Positions 3,817 to 52,638 are shown, numbered from the stretch's first letter. The stretch is DNA of 64,000 nt from Vicinamibacterales bacterium (GCA_963662965.1 OY759970.1:3328524-3392523), one strand, 5' to 3'. The notes: a model not told the origin generated them from the sequence alone. Made by a program: numbers and translations.

Positions 3817-4725
3817 ATGACGACACAGCGAACACTTAGACGTTCCGTCTCCTGCTCGGGTATCGGCCTACACTCGGGGCAGAAAGTCACCCTTCGACTC
3901 AAGCCTGCTCCGATCGATCACGGGATTCGCTTCAAACGACTCGATCTCGACGGTCTTGAGGTTTCCGCGACAGCTGAGCGGGTCGCGAGGATGAACTACG
4001 CGACCGAGTTGGCGCAGGATGCGGCTTCGGTTGGCACGGTCGAGCATCTGCTCGCGGCGCTGGTGGGACTCGGCGTCGATAACGTGAGCATCGAGTTGAA
4101 TCAGGCCGAAGTGCCGATCATGGACGGGAGCGCCGCGTCGTTCGTCTACTTAGTCCATGAAGCCGGTATCCACACGCTCAAGTCGCCTCGACGTTTTCTC
4201 AAGGTGGTGCGACCCATCACGCTGTCGCGCGGTGACAAGCGGATCGCGGTGTATCCGTCGGATTACTTCAAGGTCACCTACAGCATCAGCTTCGACCATC
4301 CGTTGCTGCGGCACCAATCCCGAACCCAACGTGTGACGGAGGATTCCTTCATCGAGGAGATCGCGCCGGCGCGCACGTTTGGTTTCCTCAAAGAGGTCGA
4401 ACAGCTTCGGCAAAAGGGGCTCGCCCTGGGTGGCTCGCTGGACAACGCGATCGTCCTGGGTGAGACAGGTGTCCTCAACGACTCGTTACGATTCGAGGAT
4501 GAGTTCGTGCGACACAAGATCCTCGACGTGATCGGCGACCTCGCGTTGGTCGGTCACCCGATCATCGGTCACGTTGTCGCGCACCGCGGCGGACATGCGC
4601 TCCACGCGAGATTTGCCCAGAAGATTCTTGATGATGTCGACGCCTGGCGGCTCGTCGAGTCGTCGGTTGACCCGGCGGACGACGCCCCCGCTTCGATCAA
4701 GGTCACCGTGCCCGCCAGCTCCTAG
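3817..4725 (+). CDS. lpxC: UDP-3-O-acyl-N-acetylglucosamine deacetylase
   Basis: MTTQRTL... N-terminus, GxGLHSG, PIMDGSA and HRGGHAL motifs. I prefer ATG 3817 over the TTG at 3793 in the ORF track. Confidence 0.92.
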   Translation: MTTQRTLRRSVSCSGIGLHSGQKVTLRLKPAPIDHGIRFKRLDLDGLEVSATAERVARMNYATELAQDAASVGTVEHLLAALVGLGVDNVSIELNQAEVPIMDGSAASFVYLVHEAGIHTLKSPRRFLKVVRPITLSRGDKRIAVYPSDYFKVTYSISFDHPLLRHQSRTQRVTEDSFIEEIAPARTFGFLKEVEQLRQKGLALGGSLDNAIVLGETGVLNDSLRFEDEFVRHKILDVIGDLALVGHPIIGHVVAHRGGHALHARFAQKILDDVDAWRLVESSVDPADDAPASIKVTVPASS

Positions 4726-4889
4726 TGGCCTGTAACAGCTGAATCAGTAACACTCCGCGGGCGTGGGGCATCCCGCCTGCCTGCGTTACTCCTCGGTCAC
4801 AAATGCCAGACTTTCTCCCTCGTCGCGCCTTGCCAGCTGGGTGCCGCGCGCCGCGGAGTGGTACTGATTCAGCTGTTACAGGCCACTAG
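4722..4889 (-). repeat. family A palindromic interspersed element, copy A1
   Basis: Arms 4722-4760 and 4851-4889 are complementary at 38 of 39 positions. Interior blocks are shared with A2-A6. Confidence 0.9.
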
Positions 4890-6700: not shown

Positions 6701-7297
6701 ATGTTGGTGGCCATCGAAGGATTGGACCAGAGCGGGAAGGAAACCCAGGCGCAGCGGTTGCGCGACCACGTCAGAGCGGAAGGACACAAGTCCCGCGTCG
6801 TTTCGTTCCCCGACTACGGAACCTCAATCGGCGAAGAGATCGCCCGTGCGCTCCAGGGCGAGCGAGAGTATGGACCGGAGGCGATGCAGCTCCTCTACGT
6901 CGCGAACCGGTTCGAGCGCAAGGCTGACATCGACCGGTGGCACGACGCCGGCCTCGTGGTGCTGTTCGACCGCTACGTCGCGTCGAGCATCGCCTACGGC
7001 GAGGCGCAAGGGCTCGACCCGGCGTGGCTGACGACGCTTCAGGTGTATCTACCCCAACCGGACCTCACGCTCCTGCTCGACATCGCGCCCGAGACCGCCG
7101 TGAGCCGCAAGACGACCGGGCGCGACCGGTATGAGCAAGATCTGACGATGCTCCAGCGTGTCCGAGCAAGCTACCTCCGCCAAGCCGAACATCCCCAATG
7201 GATGCGCGTCGACGGAGAGCAGCCGAAGGATTCGGTCGCGGCCGCGCTCGCGACAGCCATCGCGCCGCACCTAGCGGCGGGCAGGAGCCCGCGGTGA
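6701..7297 (+). CDS. tmk: thymidylate (dTMP) kinase
   Basis: IEGLDQSGKETQ P-loop, DRY motif, about 198 aa. The last 4 codons plus the stop lie in repeat A3. Confidence 0.88.
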   Translation: MLVAIEGLDQSGKETQAQRLRDHVRAEGHKSRVVSFPDYGTSIGEEIARALQGEREYGPEAMQLLYVANRFERKADIDRWHDAGLVVLFDRYVASSIAYGEAQGLDPAWLTTLQVYLPQPDLTLLLDIAPETAVSRKTTGRDRYEQDLTMLQRVRASYLRQAEHPQWMRVDGEQPKDSVAAALATAIAPHLAAGRSPR

Positions 7298-7457
7298 AAG
7301 TCGCGCTGCATTCGACCGACGATGCATCCGGCAAGGGCCCTTGTTGGTCTTCCATGTAGCGGGGTCGCATACTGTCGGTATTCTCCCTCGTCCCGCCTTG
7401 CCAGGCCGGGCGCCTCGCCGGTCTCGGTGCCACGCGCGACTTTCACCGCGGGCTCCT
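7283..7457 (-). repeat. family A element, copy A3
   Basis: Perfect 24-nt arms (7283-7306 / 7434-7457). Core CGGTATTCTCCCTCGTCCCGCCTTGCC. Confidence 0.9.
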
Positions 7458-8201
7458 AAGATGAGCTGACGGGCCGGTGGCCGGCGCCACGCTGAGGGCC
7501 CGCACGCTTCTCGCCCCCGCGTCGACCAGCACGGACGCACACGCCTCGACGGTCGCTCCGGTCGTCACGACGTCGTCTACCAAGAGGATGCGACGTCCGC
7601 GAATGGCCGCGGCGGTGCGGCGTCCGCCGCGCCATTCCCTGAGCCTGAACGCGCCGCCGACGGCGCGCAGACGGTCGCCGCGCGCCAGTACTGCCTGTGG
7701 GCGCGTGTGTCGCGTGCGGCGGAGCGCGTTGACGACCGGCGAGTCGAGACCGGCCGCCAAGTCGGCCGCTTGATTGAACCCGCGTCGCCAGCGCCGCAGC
7801 GGATGCAGCGGCACCGGCACGATGAGGTCGGTGTCCGAGAGCCAAACCTGGCCCGCGGTGCGCATCAGCTGCGTGAGTGGGACCGCGAGCGTTCGCCGGC
7901 CACCGTACTTGAGCGCATGCACGATCGCGCGCAAGGTTTCGTCATGTAGACTGACCGTTCGGCGCGGGGTTGTGAGTCCGGCGGAGCGGGTGCAGGACAC
8001 GCAGTATGCGGGCGGGGCTGCCGCGGCCCACAACGGGATGGCGATGCCGTAGAGATCGCAGACCGGTGGTTCGATTCGTGCGACCCGCTGCCAACAGTCG
8101 ACGCACATCCTACCGCGAGAGGGCGCAACCAGTAGTTCCTCGCAGACCGCGCACCGTGGTGCCCACGCCACCGCCAGCAGGGCGTCGACGACGTGTCGCA
8201 C
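7443..8201 (-). CDS. comF: ComF family phosphoribosyltransferase-like protein
   Basis: N-terminal CxxC...CxxC, and a C-terminal PRTase motif ILLVDDVVTTGATV. I chose GTG 8201, because upstream of it the long ORF overlaps rsfS. The last codons lie in repeat A3. Confidence 0.8.
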   Translation of the reverse strand: MRHVVDALLAVAWAPRCAVCEELLVAPSRGRMCVDCWQRVARIEPPVCDLYGIAIPLWAAAAPPAYCVSCTRSAGLTTPRRTVSLHDETLRAIVHALKYGGRRTLAVPLTQLMRTAGQVWLSDTDLIVPVPLHPLRRWRRGFNQAADLAAGLDSPVVNALRRTRHTRPQAVLARGDRLRAVGGAFRLREWRGGRRTAAAIRGRRILLVDDVVTTGATVEACASVLVDAGARSVRALSVAPATGPSAHLRSPR

Positions 8202-12090: not shown

Positions 12091-12466
12091 AGATTTCCCT
12101 GAAGAGGTCGTAGTTCTGTTGAATATTAATGTCGTTCGGGGCGAGGTCGAGCGCCTCTTCGTAGGCCTCGAGCGCCTCGTCGAACATCCCCTTCTGCTCG
12201 TACGCGATGCCGAGGTTGTTCCAGGCCGCAGGATACGACGGATCGATTTCCGTGGCGCGCTTCCAGCGATAGGTCGCCTCATCCCAGAGCTCGCGCTGCG
12301 CCACTTTCATTCCGAATTCGACCTGCGCTCGCGCGTCGTCACGCACATCAGCCGAAAGGGTGGGCGCGGAAGCGCCAACGAGGGTGATGGCAAGAACAGT
12401 CAGAATGGTCGCAGCCCGTAGTGAAAGCCCCACTGCATTCGACCGGCGCTGCATTCCGTCTGCCAT
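12062..12466 (-). CDS. small secreted TPR-repeat protein
   Basis: Signal-peptide-like LRAATILTVLAITLVGASA, then TPR motifs (AWNNLGIAYEQKGMFDEALEAYEEAL). Candidate starts are 12466, 12454 and GTG 12433, all of them inside repeat A4. Confidence 0.65.
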   Translation of the reverse strand: MADGMQRRSNAVGLSLRAATILTVLAITLVGASAPTLSADVRDDARAQVEFGMKVAQRELWDEATYRWKRATEIDPSYPAAWNNLGIAYEQKGMFDEALEAYEEALDLAPNDINIQQNYDLFREIYDRLSENDR

Positions 12467-12583
12467 CGTTGCTCCTCGGTCAAATACTGCCGGTATTCTC
12501 CCTCGTCACGCCTCGTCCTGGCCGGCCGCTACCTTATTCAACTGGGGTCTCGATGCAACGCGGGGTTTCACCACGGGCTGCGA
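12409..12583 (-). repeat. family A element, copy A4
   Basis: Imperfect 34-nt arms homologous to those of A3. Core CGGTATTCTCCCTCGTCACGCC. Confidence 0.85.
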
Positions 12584-12852
12584 ACTCGTACGGGACGTAC
12601 CCCGAGTGAATCACGGTTGATCGAAATATAGCCAGGTCGTGCGGCTTGGGCAAGTGTCTGGGGAGAATCACTCCAACCTCAAACTAAGATAGCAAGAGGC
12701 GTGCCGTCGGTCCGGTGCCGACGGTGTATTTGCCGCGTCCTCGCGCCCGTCTCACATCGAGAAAAGTGCGTACTGACACACTCAGTGTGACGCTTGGGCG
12801 CGCGGTCCGGGTTCGCCGGCCGTGGTCCGCTTCTTGCGATAACCAGTCCGCC

Positions 12853-16441: not shown

Positions 16442-16444
16442 ACG

Positions 16445-16716
16445 TCAGACGGGGCGTGCGGCGACCAAGCTTAGACTGGGGGAATATCGCGCTCGGCCGA
16501 ACGGTCGAGCCTCGCGCGCTTTCCCCAGACCCCCTCGCTCGCTCACTCGTGGGGACCCCGAATGCCCCACTCCGTTCGCTAGCGTATGGTGTGGGACAGC
16601 CGAGTCATTCGAAGTACGATCAGGGCGCGCACGGCGCGCCCCCGCCGGCACGGAGTGGGGCGAAAGGGTCCCCGCGAGTGCTGGCCGGTGGGGTCGGGGC
16701 CGTAGGCCCCGTCTAG
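16445..16716 (+). repeat. family B element B1 (X hairpin + full Y module)
   Basis: X hairpin 16476-16528. Internal arms 16544-16575 / 16650-16680. GGGCGCGC-ACG-GCGCGCCC at 16623-16641. Terminal GGGGCC-GTA-GGCCCC at 16696-16710. Confidence 0.9.
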
Positions 16717-16719
16717 ATT

Positions 16720-18129
16720 ATGGTCACAATCATCGGCGGTGGATTGGCCGGCAGCGAGGCGGCATGGCAGGCCGCTTCGCGCGGCGTCCGGGTTTCCCTT
16801 CACGAAATGCGACCGGTGCGCATGACGGCGGTGCATCGTACCGACCGATTGGCGGAGCTCGTCTGTAGCAACTCGTTCCGCGGGGACAAGCTCGAGCATG
16901 CCGTGGGGCTTCTCAAAGAAGAGATGCGGCAGCTCGACTCCCTGGTCATGCGTGTGGCCGACGCGACCCGAGTGCCGGCGGGAGGGGCGTTGGCGGTCGA
17001 CCGCGATCGATTCGCCGAGGGGGTGAGCTCGGCACTCCACGCCGAGCAGCGGATCGAGATCCATCGGGAGGAGGTCGACCACCTTCCAGAGCCGGCTGGT
17101 ACGACCAAACCGGTCATCGTCGCCACCGGACCGCTGACGTCGCCGCGACTGTCGGCCGACGTCACCGCGCTCATCGGTCGTGAGCAGCTGTACTTCTTCG
17201 ACGCGATCAGTCCGATCGTGCACGCAGAGTCGATCGACCACGGGAGAGTGTTTCGGGCGTCGCGCGCCGGACGCGGGAAGCCTGTCGAGGACGCCGCGCC
17301 TGGACGCGCATGCGGGGACGACACAGGAGACGGTGATTACCTGAACTGTCCGATGACCGCCGACGAGTACGGTCGCTTCTATGACGCGCTGACCACGGCC
17401 GAGCTCGCCGAGGTGCACGATTTCGATCGAACGCCGTTCTTCGAGGGGTGTCTCCCGATCGAAGTGATGGCCCATCGTGGTGTCGACACGCTTCGGTTTG
17501 GACCGATGAAGCCGGTTGGCCTGGTCGATCCGAGCACCGGCCGGCGGCCGTACGCGGTGGTCCAGCTCCGCCAAGACAACCTGGCGGCCGATCATTTCAG
17601 CCTGGTCGGGTTTCAGACGCAGCTCAAGTGGCCAGAGCAACGGCGGGTGCTCCGTCTCATCCCGGGACTCGAGCACGCCGAGTTCGTACGACTCGGCATG
17701 ATTCACCGCAATACCTACATCAACGCGCCGACCGTACTCACACCGACGTGGCAAATGCGGAGCCGGCCAGACGTGTTCTTTGCCGGCCAGCTCTCCGGCG
17801 TCGAGGGATACGTCGAGTCTGCCGCGTCGGGTCTTGTCGCCGGCATCAATGCCGCCGCCCTCGCGCGCGGCGAGGTGAGCCGCGCGCTTCCCCGCACGAC
17901 AGCGATTGGCGCGCTGGGGTACTACGTGTCGCACGCGGCCGCCGAGAACTATCAGCCGACAAACATCGCGTACGGTCTGATCCCGTCGCTCGACAACCCG
18001 CCGCGCGGCCGTCAGGCGAGGCGCGGGGCGCTTGCGGCCCGCGCCCTGGCCGACCTGGCCGCGTGGCGGTCGCGCGGGTGGGGGGCGGACCATGATCAGA
18101 CCAGGGGAATATCACCCTCGGTCGCATGA
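16720..18129 (+). CDS. trmFO: methylenetetrahydrofolate-tRNA-(uracil54-C5)-methyltransferase
   Basis: VTIIGGGLAGSEAAWQ FAD motif and Gid/TrmFO-like length. The last 12 codons are encoded by repeat B2. Confidence 0.92.
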   Translation: MVTIIGGGLAGSEAAWQAASRGVRVSLHEMRPVRMTAVHRTDRLAELVCSNSFRGDKLEHAVGLLKEEMRQLDSLVMRVADATRVPAGGALAVDRDRFAEGVSSALHAEQRIEIHREEVDHLPEPAGTTKPVIVATGPLTSPRLSADVTALIGREQLYFFDAISPIVHAESIDHGRVFRASRAGRGKPVEDAAPGRACGDDTGDGDYLNCPMTADEYGRFYDALTTAELAEVHDFDRTPFFEGCLPIEVMAHRGVDTLRFGPMKPVGLVDPSTGRRPYAVVQLRQDNLAADHFSLVGFQTQLKWPEQRRVLRLIPGLEHAEFVRLGMIHRNTYINAPTVLTPTWQMRSRPDVFFAGQLSGVEGYVESAASGLVAGINAAALARGEVSRALPRTTAIGALGYYVSHAAAENYQPTNIAYGLIPSLDNPPRGRQARRGALAARALADLAAWRSRGWGADHDQTRGISPSVA

Positions 18130-18306
18130 CGGAGTCGCGGGCGCTTCCCCCGGACCCCCCTCGCTCGCTTGCGTATGTTGGGCGTAGCCGGCTTGTTCGA
18201 AGTACGAGCGGGGCGCGCAGGGCGCGCCCCAGCCGGCACGGAGTGGGGCAAATGGGGTCCCCACGAGTGCCGGCGGCGGGGTTCGGGGCCGCAGGCCCCG
18301 TCTAAG
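18094..18306 (+). repeat. family B element B2 (X + Y, with a 37-nt internal deletion relative to B1)
   Basis: Collinear with B1 except for loss of the left internal arm. The terminal hairpin is present. Confidence 0.9.
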
Positions 18307-18318
18307 TAAGACGGACTC

Positions 18319-29975: not shown

Positions 29976-31372
29976 TGCCGATCTACCTTCCCGAGTCGAC
30001 CGCCACGATCGCTGAAGCGCTCACGCCGCGGCAGATCGTGGCCGAGCTCGACAAGTACGTCGTTCGCCAGCACAAGGCCAAGCGCGCCGTGGCGATCGCC
30101 CTTCGCAACCGGATGCGGCGACAGAAACTGCCTCCCGAGCTGGCGGAAGAGGTCGCGCCCAAGAACATCTTGATGATTGGGCCGACCGGTGTCGGCAAGA
30201 CGGAGGTGGCCAGACGCCTCGCGCGGCTGGCGCAGTCGCCGTTCATTAAAGTCGAGGCCTCGAAATTCACCGAAGTGGGCTATGTCGGCCGCGACGTGGA
30301 ATCAATGGTGCGCGACTTGGTCGAGCTGTCGGTGGGCATGGTTCGTGAGGAACGGCTCGTCGAGGTGCGGGACAAAGCGCGTTCCAACGCGGAAGAGCGC
30401 CTCCTCGATTTATTGCTTCCTCCGCTGCCGCTGCCGCTGCCGCCGCCGGCGACCGGGGCCCCGGCCGATCCACCGGCCGCGCGCGACGCGGCGGGCCGCA
30501 CGCGCGAGAAGTTCCGTGAGCAGCTCCGCGATGGTCGGCTCGACAACCGGGTGGTCGAGATCGACGCGCGCGAGTCGTCGATGCCGTCGTTCGAGATCAT
30601 TGCGGGGACGTCGGTCGAGGAGATCGACGTCAAGATGAAGGACATGCTGCCGGGGTTGTTCCAGGGTCGCAGCCGCAAGCGACGCCTGCCGGTGCCTGAA
30701 GCGTTCGAGCATCTGACCCGCGAGGAGGAGCACAAGCTCGTCGATATGGACAGCGTCAGCCGCGCCGCCATCGAGCGTGTGGAACAGGCCGGCATCATCT
30801 TCGTCGATGAGATCGACAAGATCGCCGCGCGGGAGGGCGCGCAGGGGCCCGACGTCAGCCGCGAAGGCGTGCAGCGTGACATCCTGCCGATCGTGGAGGG
30901 AACGACGGTCAACACGAAACATGGGATGGTGCGCACCGACCACATCTTGTTTATCGCGGCCGGCGCGTTTCACGTCTGCAAACCGTCCGATCTCATTCCG
31001 GAGCTCCAAGGCAGGTTCCCGATTCGCGTCGAGCTCGAGGCGCTCGAGACCGAGGACTTCGTGCGGATATTGACCGAGCCGAAAGGGGCGCTCGTGACGC
31101 AGTATCGCGCCCTGATGGCGACCGAAGGCCTCGACATCGTCTTCGAAGACGACGCGATTCGGCGGATTGCCGAGTTCGCCAACTTGGTCAATGAGCGGAG
31201 TGAAAACATCGGCGCGCGTCGGTTGCACACCGTCATGGAGAAACTGCTCGATGACGTCTCGTTCGAAGCGCCGGACATGAGCGAGTCGCGCGTGGTCATC
31301 GATGCCGCGTACGTCGACCGCATGCTCTCCGAGATCGTGAAGAACGAGGATCTCTCCCGTTACATTCTGTGA
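29975..31372 (+). CDS. hslU: ATP-dependent protease ATPase subunit HslU
   Basis: [31 protein letters not shown], Walker [22 protein letters not shown] 29975 overlaps the hslV TAG. The ORF-track start at 29702 is an out-of-gene extension. Confidence 0.95.
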
Positions 31373-31382
31373 CCCGCACTCG

Positions 31383-31572
31383 CTAGTGGCCTGTCCAAGC
31401 CAAAGCGACAGCGCTCCGCGGGCGGGGCATCCCGCAAGGGCTGGCGTTATGACCTCGCCTGGTGGGGTCACAAATGCCCAATTTGCTCCCTCGTCGCACC
31501 TTGCGGGGGCCGGGCGCGTCTGTCGATCAGCGACCACGGACTGCTGTCGATTTGGTTCGGACAGGCCACTGG
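31383..31572 (-). repeat. family A element, copy A2
   Basis: Same termini and interior blocks as A1. Over the 31-nt arms there are 26 Watson-Crick pairs plus 3 G-T pairs. Confidence 0.9.
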
Positions 31573-35964: not shown

Positions 35965-37494
35965 GTGAAAGTTCTTATCGCCAATCGAGGCGAGATCGCC
36001 GTCCGGATCATGCGTGCGTGTCACGAGCACGGGCTCGCCACGGTGGCGGTGTACGCCGACTGTGACCGACAGGCCCCCCATGTCCGCTATGCGGACCAGG
36101 CGGTGGCCCTTGAGGCCAACGAGCCGGCGAGCAGCTATCTCGCCGTCGAGAAGATCATCGCGGCGGCGCGGCAGACCGATGCCGACGCCGTCCATCCGGG
36201 TTACGGATTCTTGGCCGAGAACGGGACGTTCGCGCGTGCCGTGACCGACGCGGGGCTCACGTTCATCGGGCCGCCGGCCGACGTCATCGACCTTATGGGG
36301 AGGAAGACCGCGGCGCGTGCGGCCGCCGCGCAAGCCGAGTTCCCGACCATTCCCGGCACCGACGAGGCCCTGCCGGATGAGGCGAGCGACGCCGAGCTCC
36401 ACCGAGCGGGCGACGAGGTCGGATATCCGCTCTTCGTGAAGGCGGTGGCCGGCGGCGGTGGAAAGGGGATGCGGTTGGTTCGCGATCCTGACGTGTTGCG
36501 ACGCGCCATCGAGGGAGCTCGCTCAGAGGCGGCGTCGGCGTTCGGCAACGGCGCGGTGTATCTCGAGCGGTGCATCGAGCGTGGGCGCCACATCGAGGTG
36601 CAGCTGCTGGCGGACACCTACGGCACCGTCGTGCCGTTCGTCGAGCGCGAGTGCTCGGTGCAGCGACGTCATCAAAAGGTCATCGAGGAGACCCCGTCCC
36701 CGGTGATCAACGACCAGACGCGCCGGGCGCTCGCGGAGGCGGCGGCGCGGTTGGCCAAGGCGGTCGGGTACACGAACGCCGGGACGATCGAATGTCTGTA
36801 TGACGACACGTCCGAGGAGTTCTACTTCCTTGAGATGAATACCCGACTGCAGGTCGAGCATCCGGTCACCGAAATGGTGACCGGTATCGATCTCGTGCGC
36901 TGGCAGCTCCGCATCGCGCAGGGGGAGCGTCTCGACGTCGACCCTGCGCGAGCTCTCACCCCGGACGGGCATGCGATCGAGTGCCGCATCTACGCAGAGG
37001 ATCCGAACGCCGGGTTCATGCCGTGCCCTGGGCTTCTCGAGACGCATCGCACGCCAGCGGGACCCGGGATCAGAGTCGACGCCGGGGTAGCGGCCGGGTT
37101 CGAAGTGCCGGTGTTCTACGACTCGATGGTATCGAAAGTGATCGCGCACGCCGCCGACCGCCGGCAGGCGATCGAGCGGATGGCGCGTGCGCTCGCCGAA
37201 TACGACATCCACGGTGTTCAGACGACGATTCCGCTGTTCCGGTGGCTCTTGACCGACGCCGACTTCGTCGCCGGGAGGTTCGATACGACATATCTCGACC
37301 GCGCGCTGGCGGCCCGCGACGGCGCGCCGTTCGTGCAGCTGTCCGAAGAAGATGACGTCGTCGTCGAGGAGCTCGCGGTGCTCGCGGCCGCCGTGTCGGT
37401 GGCGCTCGACGGCGCCGGGTCCGCCGGGCGACGGTCGGCCGATGCTGACGCGAGCCGCTGGCGCCGGGCGGCGCGGATGGAGGGATTGCGGTAG
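35965..37494 (+). CDS. biotin carboxylase subunit of acetyl/propionyl-CoA carboxylase
   Basis: MKVLIANRGEIAVRI, ATP-grasp GGGGKGM, EMNTRLQVEHPVTE. No BCCP domain in this ORF. Confidence 0.93.
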   Translation: MKVLIANRGEIAVRIMRACHEHGLATVAVYADCDRQAPHVRYADQAVALEANEPASSYLAVEKIIAAARQTDADAVHPGYGFLAENGTFARAVTDAGLTFIGPPADVIDLMGRKTAARAAAAQAEFPTIPGTDEALPDEASDAELHRAGDEVGYPLFVKAVAGGGGKGMRLVRDPDVLRRAIEGARSEAASAFGNGAVYLERCIERGRHIEVQLLADTYGTVVPFVERECSVQRRHQKVIEETPSPVINDQTRRALAEAAARLAKAVGYTNAGTIECLYDDTSEEFYFLEMNTRLQVEHPVTEMVTGIDLVRWQLRIAQGERLDVDPARALTPDGHAIECRIYAEDPNAGFMPCPGLLETHRTPAGPGIRVDAGVAAGFEVPVFYDSMVSKVIAHAADRRQAIERMARALAEYDIHGVQTTIPLFRWLLTDADFVAGRFDTTYLDRALAARDGAPFVQLSEEDDVVVEELAVLAAAVSVALDGAGSAGRRSADADASRWRRAARMEGLR

Positions 37495-37556
37495 GGCGCG
37501 CACGGCGGCGCCCCCGCGAGTGCCGGCGACGAGGTTCGGGGCGGTAAGCCCCGTCT
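37494..37556 (+). repeat. family B truncated Y module (B4)
   Basis: GGGCGCGCACGGCGGCGCCC...CGCGAGTGCCGGCG...GGGGCGGTAAGCCCCGTCT. Confidence 0.75.
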
Positions 37557-37561
37557 GGGTA

Positions 37562-38095
37562 ATGATGCGGATCGAGATCGAGGTCGACGGGACGATGCAC
37601 GACGTCACAATCGATGCGATGACCAGCGCGCCGGGGCGCTTCCTCGTCTCCTGGGGCGGGACGACGCATGAAGTCGATGCACGCGTGGTCGAGCGCGATC
37701 GGCACGGGATGCTGCTGTCGCTCGTTCGGATGGGCGGCGATGCTACGAGTCGACAAGTCCGTTGCAGCGCGGTCGAGCGCGGGACGATGACGGTGAGGGC
37801 CGCCGGGGTCGATCACCGCGTCGTGATCAACGGGAGTCGTAGGCGGGTCGACCTCCCAGAGGCCGGCGATGGGGGCGGAGGTGTGTCCCGGTTGAAGGCG
37901 CCGATGCCAGGCAAGGTGGTCCGTGTCCTGGTCGCGCCGGGGGACGATGTCGACGCACGACAGCTGCTGGTCGTGGTCGAAGCGATGAAGATGGAGAACG
38001 AGCTGACCGCGGCACGTGCCGGTACCGTGACCGAGGTGCCGGTCAGCGAGGGGGACTCGGTCGAGTCGGGCCGGCTCCTCGTGGTGATCGAGTAG
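37562..38095 (+). CDS. biotin carboxyl carrier (biotinyl/lipoyl domain) protein
   Basis: C-terminal APMPGKVV...EAMKMENE biotinylation motif. ATG 37562 is the first ATG after repeat B4. Confidence 0.8.
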   Translation: MMRIEIEVDGTMHDVTIDAMTSAPGRFLVSWGGTTHEVDARVVERDRHGMLLSLVRMGGDATSRQVRCSAVERGTMTVRAAGVDHRVVINGSRRRVDLPEAGDGGGGVSRLKAPMPGKVVRVLVAPGDDVDARQLLVVVEAMKMENELTAARAGTVTEVPVSEGDSVESGRLLVVIE

Positions 38096-42357: not shown

Positions 42358-45320
42358 TGTTGCTCCCTCGTCACGCCGTGCACGGGCCCGGCGCGATCTG
42401 TGCCTGTCTCGTCCTCTGGGCGGGCCCGGCGGCGGCCGGGGCGGAGGTCGACGAATTCATCGGCCAGCGTGTGGTCGAGGTCGAGTTCGCCACAGATGGG
42501 ATCCCGATTAACGACCCCGCCGTTCGCGAGCTGGTGGAAACGACCGCCGGCGAGCCGCTCGCGATGCGCGAGGTCCGTGAGAGCTTGGCGCATCTCTTCA
42601 GCCTCGGTCGCTACGGCCACGTTGCGGTCGACGCCTACCCACGCGCCGGCGGTGTGGCGCTGCTGTATGAGCTGAGGCCGTTCGAGCTCGTCGAGCGCAT
42701 CGAGCTCTCCGGTAATCGGGTGCTCGCCGCCGACGACGTGCGGCGCGTCGTCGTCCAGCGCCACGGCGAGGTCTTCCCCGCCAGCGCGGCCGCCGCGGTG
42801 GCCGATACCGTGCGCGCGTACTACGCGGAGCGCGGTTTTCTGTCACCGCGGGTCGACGCGGAGCTGCGCGGGTCGGCGACCGAGCGCACCCTTCGCTTGA
42901 CGATAGTTGCTGGCGCGCGCGCCCGCGTCAATCGGTGGTTCATCACCGGCGTCGCCTCGGCGTTGCTCAACACGCGGCTGCGAGCTCGTCTGGGCCTCGT
43001 CGACGGCGACGTCTACGACGGCGCGAGGCTCGATCAGCGGTTGAGCGAGTACGAGGGCGAGCTCCGCGCGCTGCAGTACTACGAAGCGCGTCTCTCGCAC
43101 ACGGTGGAGCGACGCACAGACGCGGACATCGACGTCCGTTTGAACATCCTGCGCGGACCGCGCATCACGGTGACGCTGAGCGGCGACGAGGTGCCGGACG
43201 CGCGGCTCGGCGATCTGGTGCCGGTCGGACGCGAGGCGAGCGTCGACGAGGACTTGCTTGAGGATGCCGACCGACGGATCGCGGCGCACTTGCGGTCGCT
43301 CGGCTACCGCGACGCGGACGTGACGCACACGGCCGACGGGACCGCGGACGAGCTGTCGATCGTCTTCGCGGTGACCCGCGGCCCGTTCTATCAGGTGGTT
43401 GCCGTGCGGATTCGAGGCAACGCGAGCGTGCCGACCGAGGTGCTCCTGCCGGTGGTCAACATCACGTCTGGCGATCCGCTCATTGTCTCCGACGTGGACG
43501 CCGGGTTGGCCGCCATCGAGGAGCGCTACCAGCAGCTCGGCTATGCGACCGTGCGCGCGACCAGAACCTTCGCCGACATCGCGACCGGTGGCGCTGCGGG
43601 TACCGTGATGCAGACCGTCGATATCGACATCGTCGAAGGGCCGCGGATGACCATTGCCGCCTTGGTGTTCGACGGGGTCGAGGCGTGGCCGTTTGACAGA
43701 CTCGAGGAGACGGTCGCCGCACGTATCGGCGAGCCTTTCTACGGACCGCAGGTGAGCGACGACCGCGATGCGCTGCTGTCGCTCTATCTCAACGACGGGT
43801 ACGAGCAGGCCGTGGTGGTCGTCGAGCCGCAGTTTGCGGACGACCTGCGCACCGTCGACCTGGTCTTCCGCGTCGACGAAGGGCGTCAGGTACTCGTCGA
43901 TCACGTGTTGATCGTCGGTAACCGTCGGGTCGACTCCGAGACGATTCGTGGCGAGCTCGCCCTCGCGCCCGGCGACCCGCTTGGTCTCGACGACGTCGCG
44001 GAGACCCGTCGCCGGCTCAACGCGCTGGGGATGTTTCGTGGACTCGATATCCGGGAGTTTAGCCATGGTTCTGTCGACCGACGCGATGTCATCATCGAAG
44101 TGGAGGAGGCGCCGGCGACGACGCTGGCGTACGGCGGCGGGCTCGAAGTGTCGCAGCGGATTCGGCGTGACTCGGGCGACGAGGGAAGCGCCGCGGTGGA
44201 GCGGATCGAGTTTGCGCCGCGCGGATCGTTCCAGATCGGGCGCCGCAACCTGTGGGGCAAGAACCGGTCGATCAACTTGTTTACCCGTGTGAGTGTCCGG
44301 CGTAAGAACGATCCATCCGAGCCGGGTTCGGCTGACGCGGCCCGAACGCTTGGGTTTAACGAGTACCGGGTGTTGGGGACCTATCGCGAGCCGCGGTCGT
44401 TCCGGCTGCGCTGGGATGTGCTGATGTCGGGTTACGTGGAGCAGGCGATTCGACCCGGGTTCGATCTGTTCACCCGCGGTGTCACGGCACAGGTGGTGGC
44501 GGGATCCGGTGATAGGACGAGCACGACGCTCGGCTACCGCCTGGGGAGCAACGACACGTCGAATCGACAGCTGGACCCCGAGGACAGCAATATCGTCGAC
44601 CGACTGTTTCCGGAGGTGCGACTGTCGTCATTCCGGCTGAGCCGGCTTCGGGACACCCGCAACGATCCGTTCGATCCGACACGCGGCACGGTCCTCACCG
44701 CCGAAACCGAGCTCGCCGCTCGCTCGATCGGGTCCGCGGTCGGGTTTACCAAGACATTTCTGTCCGGTTCGTTCTTCCGCGAGCTGCGCGACGCGTCTCG
44801 TCTCGTGTTTGCCGCCAGTGCACGTGTCGGTCTGGCGTGGGGTTTTCCGCAGACGTATCATCTCGAGGGCCCCGGCGGACCGATGGAGGTGTCGCAGACG
44901 CTCGACCTGCCGATCAGCGAGCGCTTTTTTGCCGGAGGGGATAACACCGTGCGTGGATTCGCCCTCGACCGCCTGGGCGATCCGCGTGAGGAACCGGGCG
45001 GCACCATCGATCAGGACGGCTTTCCGCAGGGCGGTAACGCCATGCTCATCTTTAATACCGAGCTACGTGTGCGGCTGACGCGCGCCGTCGGACTCGTGAC
45101 GTTTCTCGACGCCGGGAACGTTTATGATGATGTGCAGCACGTGAGCCTGCGTCGTATCCGCGGCGGCGCTGGCTTCGGGGTACGGTACAGTTCGCCAGTC
45201 GGACCGATTCGCGTCGACCTCGGCTTCAAGCTCGGTGAGCGGCACTTCTTTGGTGACGAGACGAGTCGGACGCAAGAACCGCTCACCGCGCTTCACATCA
45301 GCATCGGCCAAGCGTTTTAG
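42357..45320 (+). CDS. Omp85-family outer membrane protein assembly factor (BamA/TamA-like)
   Basis: Signal peptide, several POTRA-like units, C-terminal barrel with RGF/GGD-type motifs (FFAGGDNTVRGF) and a terminal ...ISIGQAF. ATG 42357 overlaps the tamB TGA. Confidence 0.85.
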   Translation: MLLPRHAVHGPGAICACLVLWAGPAAAGAEVDEFIGQRVVEVEFATDGIPINDPAVRELVETTAGEPLAMREVRESLAHLFSLGRYGHVAVDAYPRAGGVALLYELRPFELVERIELSGNRVLAADDVRRVVVQRHGEVFPASAAAAVADTVRAYYAERGFLSPRVDAELRGSATERTLRLTIVAGARARVNRWFITGVASALLNTRLRARLGLVDGDVYDGARLDQRLSEYEGELRALQYYEARLSHTVERRTDADIDVRLNILRGPRITVTLSGDEVPDARLGDLVPVGREASVDEDLLEDADRRIAAHLRSLGYRDADVTHTADGTADELSIVFAVTRGPFYQVVAVRIRGNASVPTEVLLPVVNITSGDPLIVSDVDAGLAAIEERYQQLGYATVRATRTFADIATGGAAGTVMQTVDIDIVEGPRMTIAALVFDGVEAWPFDRLEETVAARIGEPFYGPQVSDDRDALLSLYLNDGYEQAVVVVEPQFADDLRTVDLVFRVDEGRQVLVDHVLIVGNRRVDSETIRGELALAPGDPLGLDDVAETRRRLNALGMFRGLDIREFSHGSVDRRDVIIEVEEAPATTLAYGGGLEVSQRIRRDSGDEGSAAVERIEFAPRGSFQIGRRNLWGKNRSINLFTRVSVRRKNDPSEPGSADAARTLGFNEYRVLGTYREPRSFRLRWDVLMSGYVEQAIRPGFDLFTRGVTAQVVAGSGDRTSTTLGYRLGSNDTSNRQLDPEDSNIVDRLFPEVRLSSFRLSRLRDTRNDPFDPTRGTVLTAETELAARSIGSAVGFTKTFLSGSFFRELRDASRLVFAASARVGLAWGFPQTYHLEGPGGPMEVSQTLDLPISERFFAGGDNTVRGFALDRLGDPREEPGGTIDQDGFPQGGNAMLIFNTELRVRLTRAVGLVTFLDAGNVYDDVQHVSLRRIRGGAGFGVRYSSPVGPIRVDLGFKLGERHFFGDETSRTQEPLTALHISIGQAF
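42358..42405 (-). repeat. family A core fragment (A6) embedded at the tamB/Omp85 junction
   Basis: TTGCTCCCTCGTCACGCCGTGCACGGGCCCGGCGCG matches the A2 core TTGCTCCCTCGTCGCACCTTGCGGGGGCCGGGCGCG at 29 of 36 positions. Confidence 0.6.
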
Positions 45321-45960
45321 TGCGCTGCTGTCGGCCCTCCTGTGGGCGGCACCGCTCGGAGCCGTTGCCCAGAGCCTCGACCGCATCGTGGCCGTCGTCG
45401 CCGGCCACGTCATCTTGGCCTCCGACGTGAGGGCCTTCCTCGAGTTCGGCCTCATCGAGGTCGAGGCTTCTGGCTCTGTCTCTGACTCTGAAGAAGACGA
45501 GCGCACGCGCGCCGGATGCGCCCTGACGCGGCTGATCGAGCGACGTCTCGCGCTCGACGAGGTCGACCGATATCGGGTGGCCGCGCCGCGGCCAGAACAG
45601 ATCGATCGCGAGCTCGCTGCCCTCCGCGGTCGCTTCAGCGATGAGGAGGCGTTTGCGGATCTCCTGGCGGCGGTGGGGCTCGGACTGCCGGACCTCAGGC
45701 AGATTCTGCGGGACAATGTCCGGCTGGAGGCGTATCTCGCTGGACGCTTTGGTTCGGCGGATCGGCTGAGTGAGTCGGAGCTGCGCGCCTACTACGCCGC
45801 CAACCGTGACGACTTCACCGACGCGGGGCGCGGCGTCGCGTTCGACACGGTTCGTGCGCAGGTCCAAGCCCGGCTGTGGGCGGAGCGGCGCGCGGCCCTC
45901 GTCGAGAACTGGACTGCCGGTCTCGCTCTCCGCGGGGACGTGACCCGGTTTGAGCCATGA
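45235..45960 (+). CDS. periplasmic SurA N-terminal-domain-like chaperone
   Basis: Signal-like LSALLWAAPLGAVAQS, then DRIVAVVAGHVILASDV and helical repeats. The start is uncertain (GTG 45235, TTG 45250 or GTG 45253) and all candidates overlap the Omp85 3' end. The stop lies at the edge of repeat B3. Confidence 0.55.
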   Translation: MSGTSLVTRRVGRKNRSPRFTSASAKRFSALLSALLWAAPLGAVAQSLDRIVAVVAGHVILASDVRAFLEFGLIEVEASGSVSDSEEDERTRAGCALTRLIERRLALDEVDRYRVAAPRPEQIDRELAALRGRFSDEEAFADLLAAVGLGLPDLRQILRDNVRLEAYLAGRFGSADRLSESELRAYYAANRDDFTDAGRGVAFDTVRAQVQARLWAERRAALVENWTAGLALRGDVTRFEP

Positions 45961-46113
45961 TCAGACCGGGGGAATATCGCGCTCGATCGAGCAACGGAGT
46001 CTCGCGCGCTTCCTGGTCAGACGGGGCCTGCGGCTCCGAACCCCGCCGCCGACACTCGCGGGGGGCCCCTTTGCCACGCTCCGTGCCGGCGGGGGCGCGC
46101 CGTGCCCGCCCTG
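45959..46113 (+). repeat. family B element B3 (X module followed by an inverted Y module)
   Basis: The X module is collinear with B1/B2. 46017-46110 is the reverse complement of the B1/B2 Y module. Confidence 0.88.
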
Positions 46114-46261
46114 ATCTCAGACTCCCCCATCCGGGCTCAGCGAGAGCGATTGTTTCCCGGCCTGCGTGGGTGCCGGTCGGACATATCCCGAAAGAAACCG
46201 TCTGCCTTTAGCGAGACGAAGCACCCCTGTATCTGAGGGCGGCTGGATGTTTCCCGAGGCG

Positions 46262-46278
46262 AGTCGGCCCCGTCTAGG
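46262..46278 (-). repeat. family B terminal motif fragment (B6)
   Basis: The minus strand reads CCTAGACGGGGCCGACT, the same CTAGACGGGGCC terminus as the Y ends. Confidence 0.5.
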
Positions 46279-47065
46279 TAATCACCTCCGCGGCGGTGAC
46301 CGCCAGGATGATCTCGACCAGATTGAAGCCCGCGTGGCTCACCATCGATGCGACGATGCTCCGTCGCACGAGGTAGAGCGCCCCCCACGCAGCCCCAAGC
46401 GCGCCGGTCATGACGGCGGCGTCCCACCCCTGGACGTGGTGCCCGAGGCCGAACGCGACGCTGAAGATCACGAGGCCAAGCCAGCCCCCGCCAAGATGTT
46501 GCTCGAAGCGACGCAGGATAAACGCGCGCTGCAGTTCCTCCCGTACCCCACCGGCGATCACGACCACCAGGCCGAACAGCAGTGCCCGCGCCGGGGTGTC
46601 GAGCATCGACTCCAGCGGATTGTCTGGGACATTCTGAAGCGACGGCGCAATGGTGCGAATCAACAGCAGTCCGCCGATCGCGATGAACACGAGTAAGGGA
46701 ATCAGCAGGACGCCCAGCGCCGCTTCTCGGCCCGGAGTCCAAGCGCCGGCGACGAGGTCCCGCAGCGACTCGCCGTGTGCGCGCAGGAAATAGACAACGA
46801 GTGCCACAATGAAGGCGGCGTCGACGAGCGAGAGGGTGACGATGTAGGCGAACGACAGCTGACCGTCGCTGGCGACCGCCTGCATCCCGATGCTGTTCAG
46901 TATCAGCGCCAAGGCGAGCTGCGTCGGGAACCCGGAGCAGATGAGCACCTCGGTCAAGGCTGTGGTCGCTCCACCGGGGCCGGCGTCGGTCGTGGGGACG
47001 GTGATGGCGTCTGGGGCGGAACCGAGCGACTCGCCGGGCGGGGAGGTCGAGTCCGGCTCCGTCAT
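46274..47065 (-). CDS. CPBP family intramembrane glutamic endopeptidase (CAAX/Abi)
   Basis: Motifs GVREELQRAF, FSVAFGLGH, HAGFN. Multiple TM spans. Confidence 0.8.
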   Translation of the reverse strand: MTEPDSTSPPGESLGSAPDAITVPTTDAGPGGATTALTEVLICSGFPTQLALALILNSIGMQAVASDGQLSFAYIVTLSLVDAAFIVALVVYFLRAHGESLRDLVAGAWTPGREAALGVLLIPLLVFIAIGGLLLIRTIAPSLQNVPDNPLESMLDTPARALLFGLVVVIAGGVREELQRAFILRRFEQHLGGGWLGLVIFSVAFGLGHHVQGWDAAVMTGALGAAWGALYLVRRSIVASMVSHAGFNLVEIILAVTAAEVIT

Positions 47066-50160: not shown

Positions 50161-50171
50161 TCCTTATTCTC

Positions 50172-50192
50172 GACGGGGCTGGCGGCCCCGTC
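50172..50192. repeat. family B terminal-hairpin-like unit (B5)
   Basis: GACGGGGC-TGGCG-GCCCCGTC immediately after the nrdJ stop, followed by TGAG as at other Y ends. Confidence 0.55.
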
Positions 50193-50209
50193 TGAGATTG
50201 GACCGGCGT

Positions 50210-50230
50210 GGGGCGTTCGGGGCCCCTTTT
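50210..50230 (+). terminator. intrinsic terminator candidate after nrdJ
   Basis: GGGGC-GTTCGGG-GCCCC followed by TTTT. Confidence 0.55.
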
Positions 50231-50306
50231 GCAGTACGCTGGCAGTCTCAGTGTTCCTCGTCGTGAATGGACGGCGCCGGAACCCGAGCGATGAGGGGGC
50301 CGTACG

Positions 50307-52109: not shown

Positions 52110-52124
52110 CAGCCATCTCATAAA

Positions 52125-52250
52125 GGCGCCGGCATTCGGCCGCCGATGCATCCCGCCAGGGGCGGCGTTGGGCGTTGCATGAGCGCGGTCGAATACTACC
52201 GGTATTCTCCCTCAGTCTTTGGCCGGGAGCGATATTCCCCTGGTCTGATC
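52125..52250 (-). repeat. family A element A5, fused to a family B X-module end
   Basis: Core CGGTATTCTCCCTCAGTCT, followed by the reverse complement of GATCAGACCAGGGGAATATCG at 52230-52250. Confidence 0.8.
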
Positions 52251-52580
52251 TTGGCCCCATCCGAAGTAGGCGAGGGCGACTAGCAGCGCGCTAAATCCGG
52301 CGCGCGCCAGTTGGGGCGCGAGCAAGAGCTCACCGTAGACGTGCGGATCATTGTGGAGGCTGATCGACTGAAGCCCGAGGAGGCCGCTGACGGCCAGCGC
52401 CAGTCCGCCGGGGAGCGAGACCCGCACCAACGCCGCGGCCAGCGCGAGGACGCCGCCCGAGAGCATCCGCCACAGGTTGGCCCACCACTCGAGCGTGCCC
52501 GAGCCGATGAGGTCGGCGACACCGACGACAACGTCGTACACGCCGTAGACCAACATCCCGAGCGCCGCGGCTCTCAGCAT
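52212..52580 (-). CDS. small integral membrane protein (about 4 TM)
   Basis: 122 aa, hydrophobic. The last 14 codons (QDQTRGISLPAKD) lie in repeat A5. Confidence 0.5.
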   Translation of the reverse strand: MLRAAALGMLVYGVYDVVVGVADLIGSGTLEWWANLWRMLSGGVLALAAALVRVSLPGGLALAVSGLLGLQSISLHNDPHVYGELLLAPQLARAGFSALLVALAYFGWGQDQTRGISLPAKD

Positions 52581-52638
52581 GCCCCCTCTTGTATCATGCC
52601 GCTTCGGTCAACGACGAGTGATGAATGACGAGTGACGA

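Follow-up and report, generated by a model that had tools for sequence, protein, structure and literature searches.

A stretch of 64,000 nucleotides (nt) from a Vicinamibacterales bacterium (GCA_963662965.1 OY759970.1:3328524-3392523; hereafter the window) carries modular intergenic repeats, one of which, B3, fills the whole gap between a gene for a SurA-like protein and a gene for a CAAX protease. B3 is probably a copy of a new Vicinamibacterales family of non-autonomous, hairpin-forming interspersed repeats that resemble repetitive extragenic palindromic (REP) sequences, bacterial interspersed mosaic elements (BIMEs) and REPINs. The family is characterized by Y, a unit of approximately 95 nt that consists of three hairpins (H1, H2 and H3) and ends in GCCCCGTCT. 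In B3, as well as in the related elements B1 and B2, Y is accompanied by a second module, X.

All coordinates refer to the whole window, which has a G+C content of 65% and a gene content of the housekeeping type. Other genomes were covered by 22 related loci (L001-L022, approximately 180 kb). When TrmFO and ribonucleotide reductase are used for comparison, the closest relatives prove to be metagenome contigs and metagenome-assembled genomes (MAGs), with chromosomes of 7-8 Mb. L019 is a conspecific contig, with a ribonucleotide reductase that is 99% identical, and L020 and L022 come from relatives in which this protein is 90 and 89% identical, respectively. For TrmFO, the identity to the window amounts to 86% in L001, 81% in L002 and 80% in L003 and L004. 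The features discussed below are listed in Table 1.

Table 1. Repeat elements, modules and related features in the window and in the related loci
Feature	Position	Strand	Context or evidence
B3			Between SurA-like gene (+, 45235-45960) and CAAX-protease gene (-, 46274-47065); fills whole gap
B3, X module	45952-46014	+	Starts CCATGATCAGACC; BLAST; X profile E 7e-19; identical in L019
B3, left-arm Y, complete	46017-46116	- (Y-prime on +)	Covariance model 72.1 bits, E 1.3e-11
B3, spacer	46117-46194		Begins with third TCAGAC motif
B3, right-arm Y, degenerate	46195-46283	+	Ends GGCCCCGTCTAGGTAAT; weak model match, 10 bits, E 0.017 (421-nt search)
B1	16444-16722	+	Between topA and trmFO
B1, H3 remnant	16445-16461		First in order
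B1, X	16463-16536		Second in order
B1, Y-prime without H3	16519-16609	-	Third in order; followed by spacer
B1, full Y	16618-16722		After spacer
B2	18087-18311	+	Between trmFO and xerC
B2, X	18087-18165		First in order
B2, Y-prime relic			After X; followed by spacer common with B1
B2, full Y	18206-18311		After spacer
Short Y	37489-37564	+	Covariance model 33.8 bits; BLAST 37500-37557
Solo terminal hairpin	50168-50200	+	TCGACGGGGCTGGCGGCCCCGTCTGA; 8 nt past ribonucleotide reductase stop; fold z -4.4
Half X, 5' arm only	52215-52257	-	X profile E 2.4e-10; abuts A5 core
A5 core	52129-52226	+	A profile E 6e-21; half X and A5 core conserved in L019
A family, window	4722-4889
A family, window	7203-7531
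A family, window	12331-12584
A family, window	31369-31517
A family, window	52122-52226
A family, L002	3800-3978
A family, L003	18796-18889
A family, L014	5039-5131
A family, L019	7392-7489

Arrangement of X and Y in B1, B2 and B3

In a self-BLAST of the window, the X segment of B3 matches the X modules of B2 (45955-46013 vs 18090-18148; 83%, E 5e-11) and B1 (45955-46011 vs 16465-16521; 79%, E 2e-8) on the same strand, which agrees with the orientation given to X in the initial annotation of this DNA. The adjoining segment matches the plus-strand Y of B2 (46019-46116 vs 18303-18206; 86.7% over 98 nt, E 3.5e-25) and of B1 (46019-46116 vs 16714-16618; 84.7%, E 1.3e-22) on the opposite strand. The earlier description of this segment as the reverse complement of the Y of B1 and B2 is thereby borne out (E 1e-22 to 1e-25), with coordinates that were one base off, as the 94-mer concerned has its single occurrence at 46018-46111. 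Read on the minus strand, the left arm of B3 consists of H1, H2 and H3, followed by GCCCCGTCTGA. At the terminus of the right arm, an exact GCCCCGTCT is present at 46267-46275. The spacer between the arms is without relatives in the rest of the window and, L019 excepted, in the other genomes searched. Its interpretation as ancestral intergenic DNA was rejected, as local alignment to the spacers of approximately 50 nt in L020 and L022 was no better than alignment to shuffled sequences.

The initial annotation had further concluded that Y is inverted relative to X in B3, and hence that the modules are separable. The alignment of the left parts of B1, B2, B3 and the L019 copy (alignment A3) does not bear this out, as all four are colinear, with X followed by a copy in the Y-prime orientation. 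In B1 and B2, Y-prime lacks the 21 nt TGGTCAGACGGGGCCTGCGGC, i.e., H3, and B2 additionally lacks most of the remaining arm. After the left arm, B1 and B2 continue with a common spacer and a well-kept plus-strand Y, the corresponding arm of B3 being degenerate. As judged from these sequences, the common plan of the B elements appears to be X, Y-prime, spacer, Y, with an arm decay that seems to differ by copy: the left arm is kept in B3 and the right arm in B1 and B2. This is why Y seems inverted in B3: the partner with which X had been compared in B1 and B2 was the distant Y of the right arm. The orientation of X to the nearest Y is the same in B1, B2 and B3 and is thus inherited rather than shuffled. 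B3 alone is no proof of free recombination between X and Y.

It is highly improbable that B3 arose from an X-Y arrangement like that of B1 and B2 through one local inversion of the Y segment. The TCAGAC motif does occur on both sides of Y-prime (at 46017 and at 46117), and such an event might conceivably have been mediated by the inverted GTCTAG of 46271-46276. However, B1 and B2 likewise have Y-prime after X, so that B3 can be explained without an inversion. Moreover, the spacer of B1 and B2 is not present in B3 according to the self-BLAST, B3 has its own outward-facing right terminus, and the identical arrangement is also the fixed state in L019. These observations practically rule out a local inversion.

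On the minus strand, the left arms read as head-to-tail modules that each close with a G/C run followed by GTCTRR. In B3, the order is Y...GCCCCGTCTGA and then X-prime...CCCCGGTCTGA; in B1, it is Y without H3...GGGGGTCTGG, X-prime...CCCAGTCTAA and the H3 remnant...GCCCCGTCTGA. The region 16444-16718 of B1 folds as a single long imperfect hairpin (z -7.9), and the termini of this element, CAGACGGGGCGTGCGGC and GCCGTAGGCCCCGTCTAG, are inverted repeats. A covariance model of Y, described below, matches the right Y of B1 with 90.6 bits (+) and the degenerate left Y, at 16519-16609, with 27.9 bits (-; E 5.5e-6). The distance between the inverted GCCCCGTCT termini is 268 nt in B1 and 257 nt in B3. 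This 9-mer occurs seven times in the window, compared to 1.09 times expected; all seven occurrences lie within the elements and none of 100 shuffles reaches this number. The B elements of the window are inverted Y pairs, with an additional, lineage-specific X beyond the tail of the left arm. In the window, the Y-prime of B3 has five differences from its counterpart in L019, which weaken H1, H2 and H3, and the L019 copy is nearer to the family consensus. Such changes are as expected for a decaying copy.

As for X itself, the TCAGAC motifs that flank it were considered as a target-site duplication. This candidate was rejected, as the shared sequence runs 7 nt further to the left (CCAWGMT) in all four X copies; judged from this extension, TCAGAC is probably part of X. 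The fusion of X with the core of a second repeat family, A, that had been noted earlier in A5 is real according to the profile matches (A core 52129-52226, +; half X 52215-52257, -), and no Y is present near this half X. The claim that the modules are separable therefore stands on other grounds than the arrangement of B3, namely on Y without X in other genomes and on the half X at an A core without Y. The half X overlaps the 3' end of a 131-codon open reading frame (ORF; 52212-52607, -) that has no Pfam match, and the repeat supplies the end of this gene. Another ORF, of 84 codons (45957-46211), spans X and Y-prime of B3 and starts with the ATG within the X motif CCATGATC. Although automatic annotation would call this ORF, it is almost certainly spurious, because the X of B1 has no ATG at that place.

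The Y unit: conserved fold, distribution and insertion sites

Eighteen full copies of Y, from the window and 11 other loci, align over approximately 100 nt with a mean column identity of 75%. H1 has the sequence GGCGCGC-ACG-GCGCGCC. H2 is a long stem, of which the variable lower part stays complementary, e.g., GCCGGCAC/GTGCCGGC versus CGGCGTCAC/GTGACGCCG, and of which the internal loops GGMG and CGA and the upper stem YGGGGC/GCCCCR are conserved. H3, with the sequence CGGGGC-N3-5-GCCCCG, is a REP-like terminal hairpin and is followed by an invariant GTCT and two purines. Across species, the unpaired nucleotides GGMG, CGA, GGGGTT and GTCTAAG are highly conserved.

The secondary structure of Y is conserved and strand-specific. 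RNAalifold, applied to a MAFFT alignment, gives 24 pairs, 6 of which have compensatory changes. This result is an independent check on a covariance model, R1, that was built here and to which an alignment of 26 distinct copies was fitted. In that model-fitted alignment, 92.6% of the cells are paired, compared to 37-56% when the partners are slid, and 16 of the 27 pairs show compensatory double changes; in 500 shuffles, these values are never attained. On the Y strand, G.T outnumbers A.C by 20 to 2, and in 17 of the 18 copies the fold of this strand is more stable than that of the complement, by 5.8 kcal/mol on average, the G-richness of the Y strand contributing both to the G.T excess and to the difference in folding.

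Five loci within the 64-kb window bear Y or its terminus; for comparison, REP copy numbers often exceed 100 per genome. A strict Y pattern with 26 fixed bases has no matches in reference genomes. A looser pattern with two gaps finds 5 loci in reference genomes and 9 in metagenomes, and none in viral contigs. In these pattern scans, the matches are confined to MAGs of Acidobacteria/Vicinamibacterales and to metagenome contigs of the soil type. In the genomes of other Vicinamibacterales, Y units are found that have no X. They occur in both orientations, as single copies (L005, L008 and L010-L018), in head-to-tail arrays and in inverted pairs whose GTCT tails face outward. The expectation that units combine in either orientation, raised before on the basis of the window, is thus supported for Y by these genomes. 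L009 contains four head-to-tail units with a period of approximately 94 nt and L007 two, L006 has two minus-strand units after nuoN, and L016 has an inverted pair in which an H3 remnant faces a short Y. The arrays of L007 (7110-7312) and L009 (3057-3441) occupy an orthologous site directly upstream of purM in two different Vicinamibacterales MAGs and end in GTCTAAATATGG; the copy number at this site varies. In L008 (6289-6519), a Y unit starts where the 5S rRNA gene has its 3' end, a place at which the terminator of the rRNA operon would be expected.

The 15 Y sites that could be resolved are all flanked by co-directional or convergent genes and never by divergent ones. At independent co-directional sites, Y is in the sense orientation in 9 of 10 cases, the antisense exception being the Y between two minus-strand genes in L012/L014. 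Because of this exception, a sense orientation of Y relative to the upstream gene is no strict rule, and convergent sites are uninformative in this respect. In B3, X has the sense orientation for the plus-strand gene, as Y has for the minus-strand gene, and a convergent site such as this one cannot discriminate between orientations.

Besides the full units, shorter forms exist. The initial annotation had listed a truncated Y at 37494-37556; it is a real element, but it is not truncated, having instead an internal deletion of the middle hairpin. This short Y lacks H2. The break lies at the base of this hairpin, between direct repeats of CCCCGCG, as it does in L016 (6182-6253), where the same short form is found. 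Since the break at these repeats is common to two genomes, recurrent slippage deletion across H2 is the simplest explanation, and the sequences suggest that the short Y may have arisen in this way. The solo terminal hairpin at 50168-50200 represents a minimal REP-like unit. It is followed, within 50168-50240, by a second hairpin with a T run (GGGGCGTTCGGGGCCCCTTTT), which resembles an ordinary intrinsic terminator. Both hairpins are present in L019 and neither is present in L020 or L022.

The initial annotation had suggested comparing strains for the presence or absence of the elements. Among the related loci, the elements prove to be inserted relative to the relatives, since the sites of B1, B2, the short Y and B3 are empty in relatives and B3 is present in L019. 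The B1 site is empty in L001 and in L003/L004, and an A-type element is located in the topA-trmFO gap of L002. The B2 site is empty in L001, L002 and L003. At the site of the short Y, between genes for biotin carboxylase and the biotin carrier, L020 and L022 have an 11-nt spacer, which is replaced in the window and not duplicated. The B3 site of L020 and L022 contains only a spacer of approximately 50 nt, with X, Y-prime, spacer and right terminus all missing; in L019, B3 is present with the same architecture. No consistent target-site duplication is found at the four pairs of filled and empty sites; instead, short spacers and terminal codons are replaced.

As a result, the repeats rewrite gene ends. 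The SurA-like gene obtains its last codon and TGA stop from the first bases of X, and the CAAX-protease gene its last two codons and TAG stop from the right terminus of B3. The reading frame of TrmFO runs 40 nt into X (18090-18129), so that the last 12 codons and the stop are encoded by the repeat; in the relatives, trmFO overlaps the start of xerC instead. In addition, the repeats generate spurious ORFs, such as 45957-46211, and are likely to break short-read assemblies.

Relation to known repeats and alternative explanations

The REP, BIME and REPIN systems of Enterobacteria and Pseudomonas, with their REP-associated tyrosine transposases (RAYTs; PMC2817692, PMC3116915, PMC3337134), are the closest parallel to the Y family. 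Both consist of GC-rich extragenic palindromes with a minimal hairpin (H3, and the solo hairpin at 50168-50200), both form long hairpins from inverted pairs (B1, z -7.9; model matches on both strands in B1 and B3), both occur in mosaic clusters with other motifs and at co-directional or convergent locations, and both combine long vertical persistence within a lineage with presence or absence at individual sites. The REP-like interpretation is preferred because of these palindromic units, hairpin-forming inverted pairs, mosaics, extragenic location and lineage persistence, and the polymorphism of sites matches as well. The comparison with a mosaic of the BIME or REPIN type in the initial annotation was broadly right, as the repeats are modular and intergenic, with inverted pairs, arrays and the combination of a half X with an A core.

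Additional parallels come from the study by Di Nocera et al. (2013; PMC3733652). REPs are described there as predominating between unidirectional and convergent ORFs, a distribution that is matched by the context of Y, with 0 of 15 sites between divergent genes. Head-to-tail arrays are common in Y, whereas head-to-tail dimers are described in the same source as rare or absent in most REP families. The CGTC-REP superfamily is similar to Y in that GCCCCGTCT contains CGTC. However, CGTC REPs are described as having a stem of 8-9 bp that starts with A/T pairs, a loop of 4-5 nt, a CCA tail and an unpaired tag (PMC3733652), whereas the stem of Y (GACGGGGC/GCCCCGTC) is G/C after the first pairs, the loops measure 3-5 nt, the CG of CGTC is paired within H3, and the tail is TAAG, TAGG or TGA. 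The repeats associated with TIRYT transposases carry the motif GGGGWSAS (PMC3733652), which is absent from Y. The Vicinamibacterales lie outside the analysis of that study (PMC3733652).

The composite BOX (boxA-B-C) elements of pneumococci, the Correia/NEMIS elements of Neisseria and the ERIC/RU elements of enterobacteria (PMC3184786, PMC10969869) are comparable as well, in that they are composed of separable sub-modules, insert at or into gene ends, thereby providing stops or C-terminal residues, and have a strong secondary structure once transcribed. In contrast to these elements, single Y units have no consistent terminal inverted repeats and no target duplication, and there is no sequence similarity. 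Integron attC sites were rejected by inspection, as the GTTRRRY core is missing and the arrays contain no cassettes. A literature search yielded no earlier description of such repeats in Vicinamibacteria or Vicinamibacterales. Altogether, the Y family acts like REP/BIME sequences, yet it is separate and undescribed, with classical REP features that are lacking or present in part. It would add a REP/BIME-like family to the Vicinamibacterales, an order of soil Acidobacteria that is abundant but has hardly been cultured. The unit is of unusual size and elaboration, with three hairpins, stems that covary, and unpaired motifs and a GTCT end that are invariant.

With regard to the mechanism, Y units may spread as single-stranded DNA hairpins by means of a hairpin-recognizing enzyme, for which the likeliest candidate would be an HUH/Y1 transposase such as a RAYT or TIRYT. 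Such a mechanism is favored because the Acidobacteria Koribacter, Terriglobus, Acidobacterium and Granulicella are described as having Y1 transposases with long inverted repeats on either side, part of these repeats forming repeat families, and because CGTC-tagged REPs are described as lacking a dedicated transposase (PMC3733652). Once inserted, the units would be co-transcribed and fold in the mRNA, where they might at most stabilize 3' ends or intercistronic regions, or have a terminator-like role. If the mobilizing enzyme were found, the family would be a useful case for studying how structure is read by hairpin-recognizing transposases or RNA-binding factors.

Several observations weigh against the REP-like interpretation. 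A REP unit is a palindrome of 20-40 nt with an unpaired GTAG tag, whereas Y measures approximately 95 nt, has three hairpins and is devoid of such a tag. The solo H3 at 50168-50200 does fit a palindrome of that size, but the unit that commonly recurs is the three-hairpin Y. No RAYT is linked to the Y family, and no transposase is found among the flanking genes checked (20 in the window and 10 in the loci, all housekeeping; complete genomes were not scanned). With a divergence of 13-20% among the copies in the window, nothing points to very recent transposition. In a profile search of all 22 loci, X is found only in L019, which has the same 3.5 copies as the window. The X hairpin is significant in B1 only (the B3 copy has a z of 0.8), and X is therefore described as a sequence module and not as a proven structure. 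Furthermore, the right arm of B3 matches the model weakly (10 bits), the covariation counts obtained with R1 depend on a model-fitted alignment, and the G.T excess could partly stem from G-richness or from a transcription-linked C-to-T bias.

The main rival is that Y, perhaps together with X, is a cis-acting RNA element selected by the host, with a mobility that is secondary or extinct. It could then function as a terminator lacking a U tract, a protector of mRNA 3' ends, a signal for processing between cistrons or a module to which proteins bind. This is a possible, if unlikely, explanation. It would account for the covarying stems and the highly conserved unpaired nucleotides across species, the strand-specific folding, the prevalence of the sense orientation (9 of 10 co-directional sites, with none of the sites divergent), the Y directly after the 5S rRNA at the expected place of an operon terminator, and the array that two species have at an orthologous site upstream of purM. 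However, the flanking genes share no function, the sites differ between close relatives, a clear antisense copy exists (L012/L014), and the B3 copy of the window has, compared to L019, the stem-weakening changes of a decaying relic. In addition, tandem arrays of two to four near-identical units are hard to explain by function. A scan for intrinsic terminators finds no site inside B1, B2 or B3; a U tract is absent, Y ending in GTCTAAG and not in a T run. Likewise, a scan for sigma-70 promoters finds none within the elements, and no Rfam family matches the elements at the gathering score, permissive thresholds giving one tRNA and matches at chance level (E >1). It is doubtful that Y, with its three hairpins and conserved internal loops, constitutes a new order-wide class of structured RNA that acts in cis on transcripts, for instance as a terminator without a U tract, a processing signal or a protein-docking site, located at 3' ends, in between cistrons and downstream of the rRNA operon. 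If it did, transposition would be the way in which this lineage distributes a regulatory signal.

Alternatively, units of approximately 260 nt with inverted AGACGGGGC...GCCCCGTCT termini could be classical MITEs (miniature transposable elements with inverted repeats), mobilized by a DDE enzyme, e.g., an IS630- or IS5-like one that targets TA, CTAG or YTAR, the single Y units and arrays being products of decay or recombination. The imperfect terminal inverted repeats of B1 (17 nt) and B3 (approximately 13 nt), the ends, which are mostly CTAG, TTAG or CTAA, and the neighboring A1/A4/L002-type elements, which are flanked by CTAG and have inverted repeats of approximately 45 nt, are in line with this idea. 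Nevertheless, it is quite unlikely, since most Y copies elsewhere are single or head-to-tail, without an inverted partner and without the terminal inverted repeats of 15-30 bp that would be expected on each copy of a MITE. Several ends, moreover, are CAGAC or GTCTGG and contain no TA, the absence of a consistent target-site duplication and the replaced spacer of the short Y are not in its favor, and covarying internal hairpins are not needed by a MITE of the DDE type.

The A family and repeats within genes

The A family has a conserved core of approximately 95 nt (...GCATCCCG...GGTATTCTCCCTCGTCGCGCCTTGCCAG) inside long inverted repeats that are specific to each copy. Two types of backbone are found, namely CTAG-TGGCCTGT...ACAGGCCA-CTAG and GSAGCCCGYGGTGAAAG...CTTTCACCRCGGGCTSC. 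Elements of the A1/A4/L002 type have CTAG on both sides. The folds of A1 and A2 have z values of -12 and -5.2, respectively, and no Rfam model matches the family. A is a candidate for a MITE or for a structured RNA that has escaped annotation. In L005, L007 and L017, ends or cores of the A family adjoin Y.

Diverged direct repeats, with 61-64% identity, are present within long ORFs at 2144-2514/3170-3540, 15772-16011/15909-16167 and 21403-21709/22246-22552, the second pair being located in the zinc-ribbon region of TopA. These repeats look like internal domain duplications that are unrelated to the intergenic repeats.

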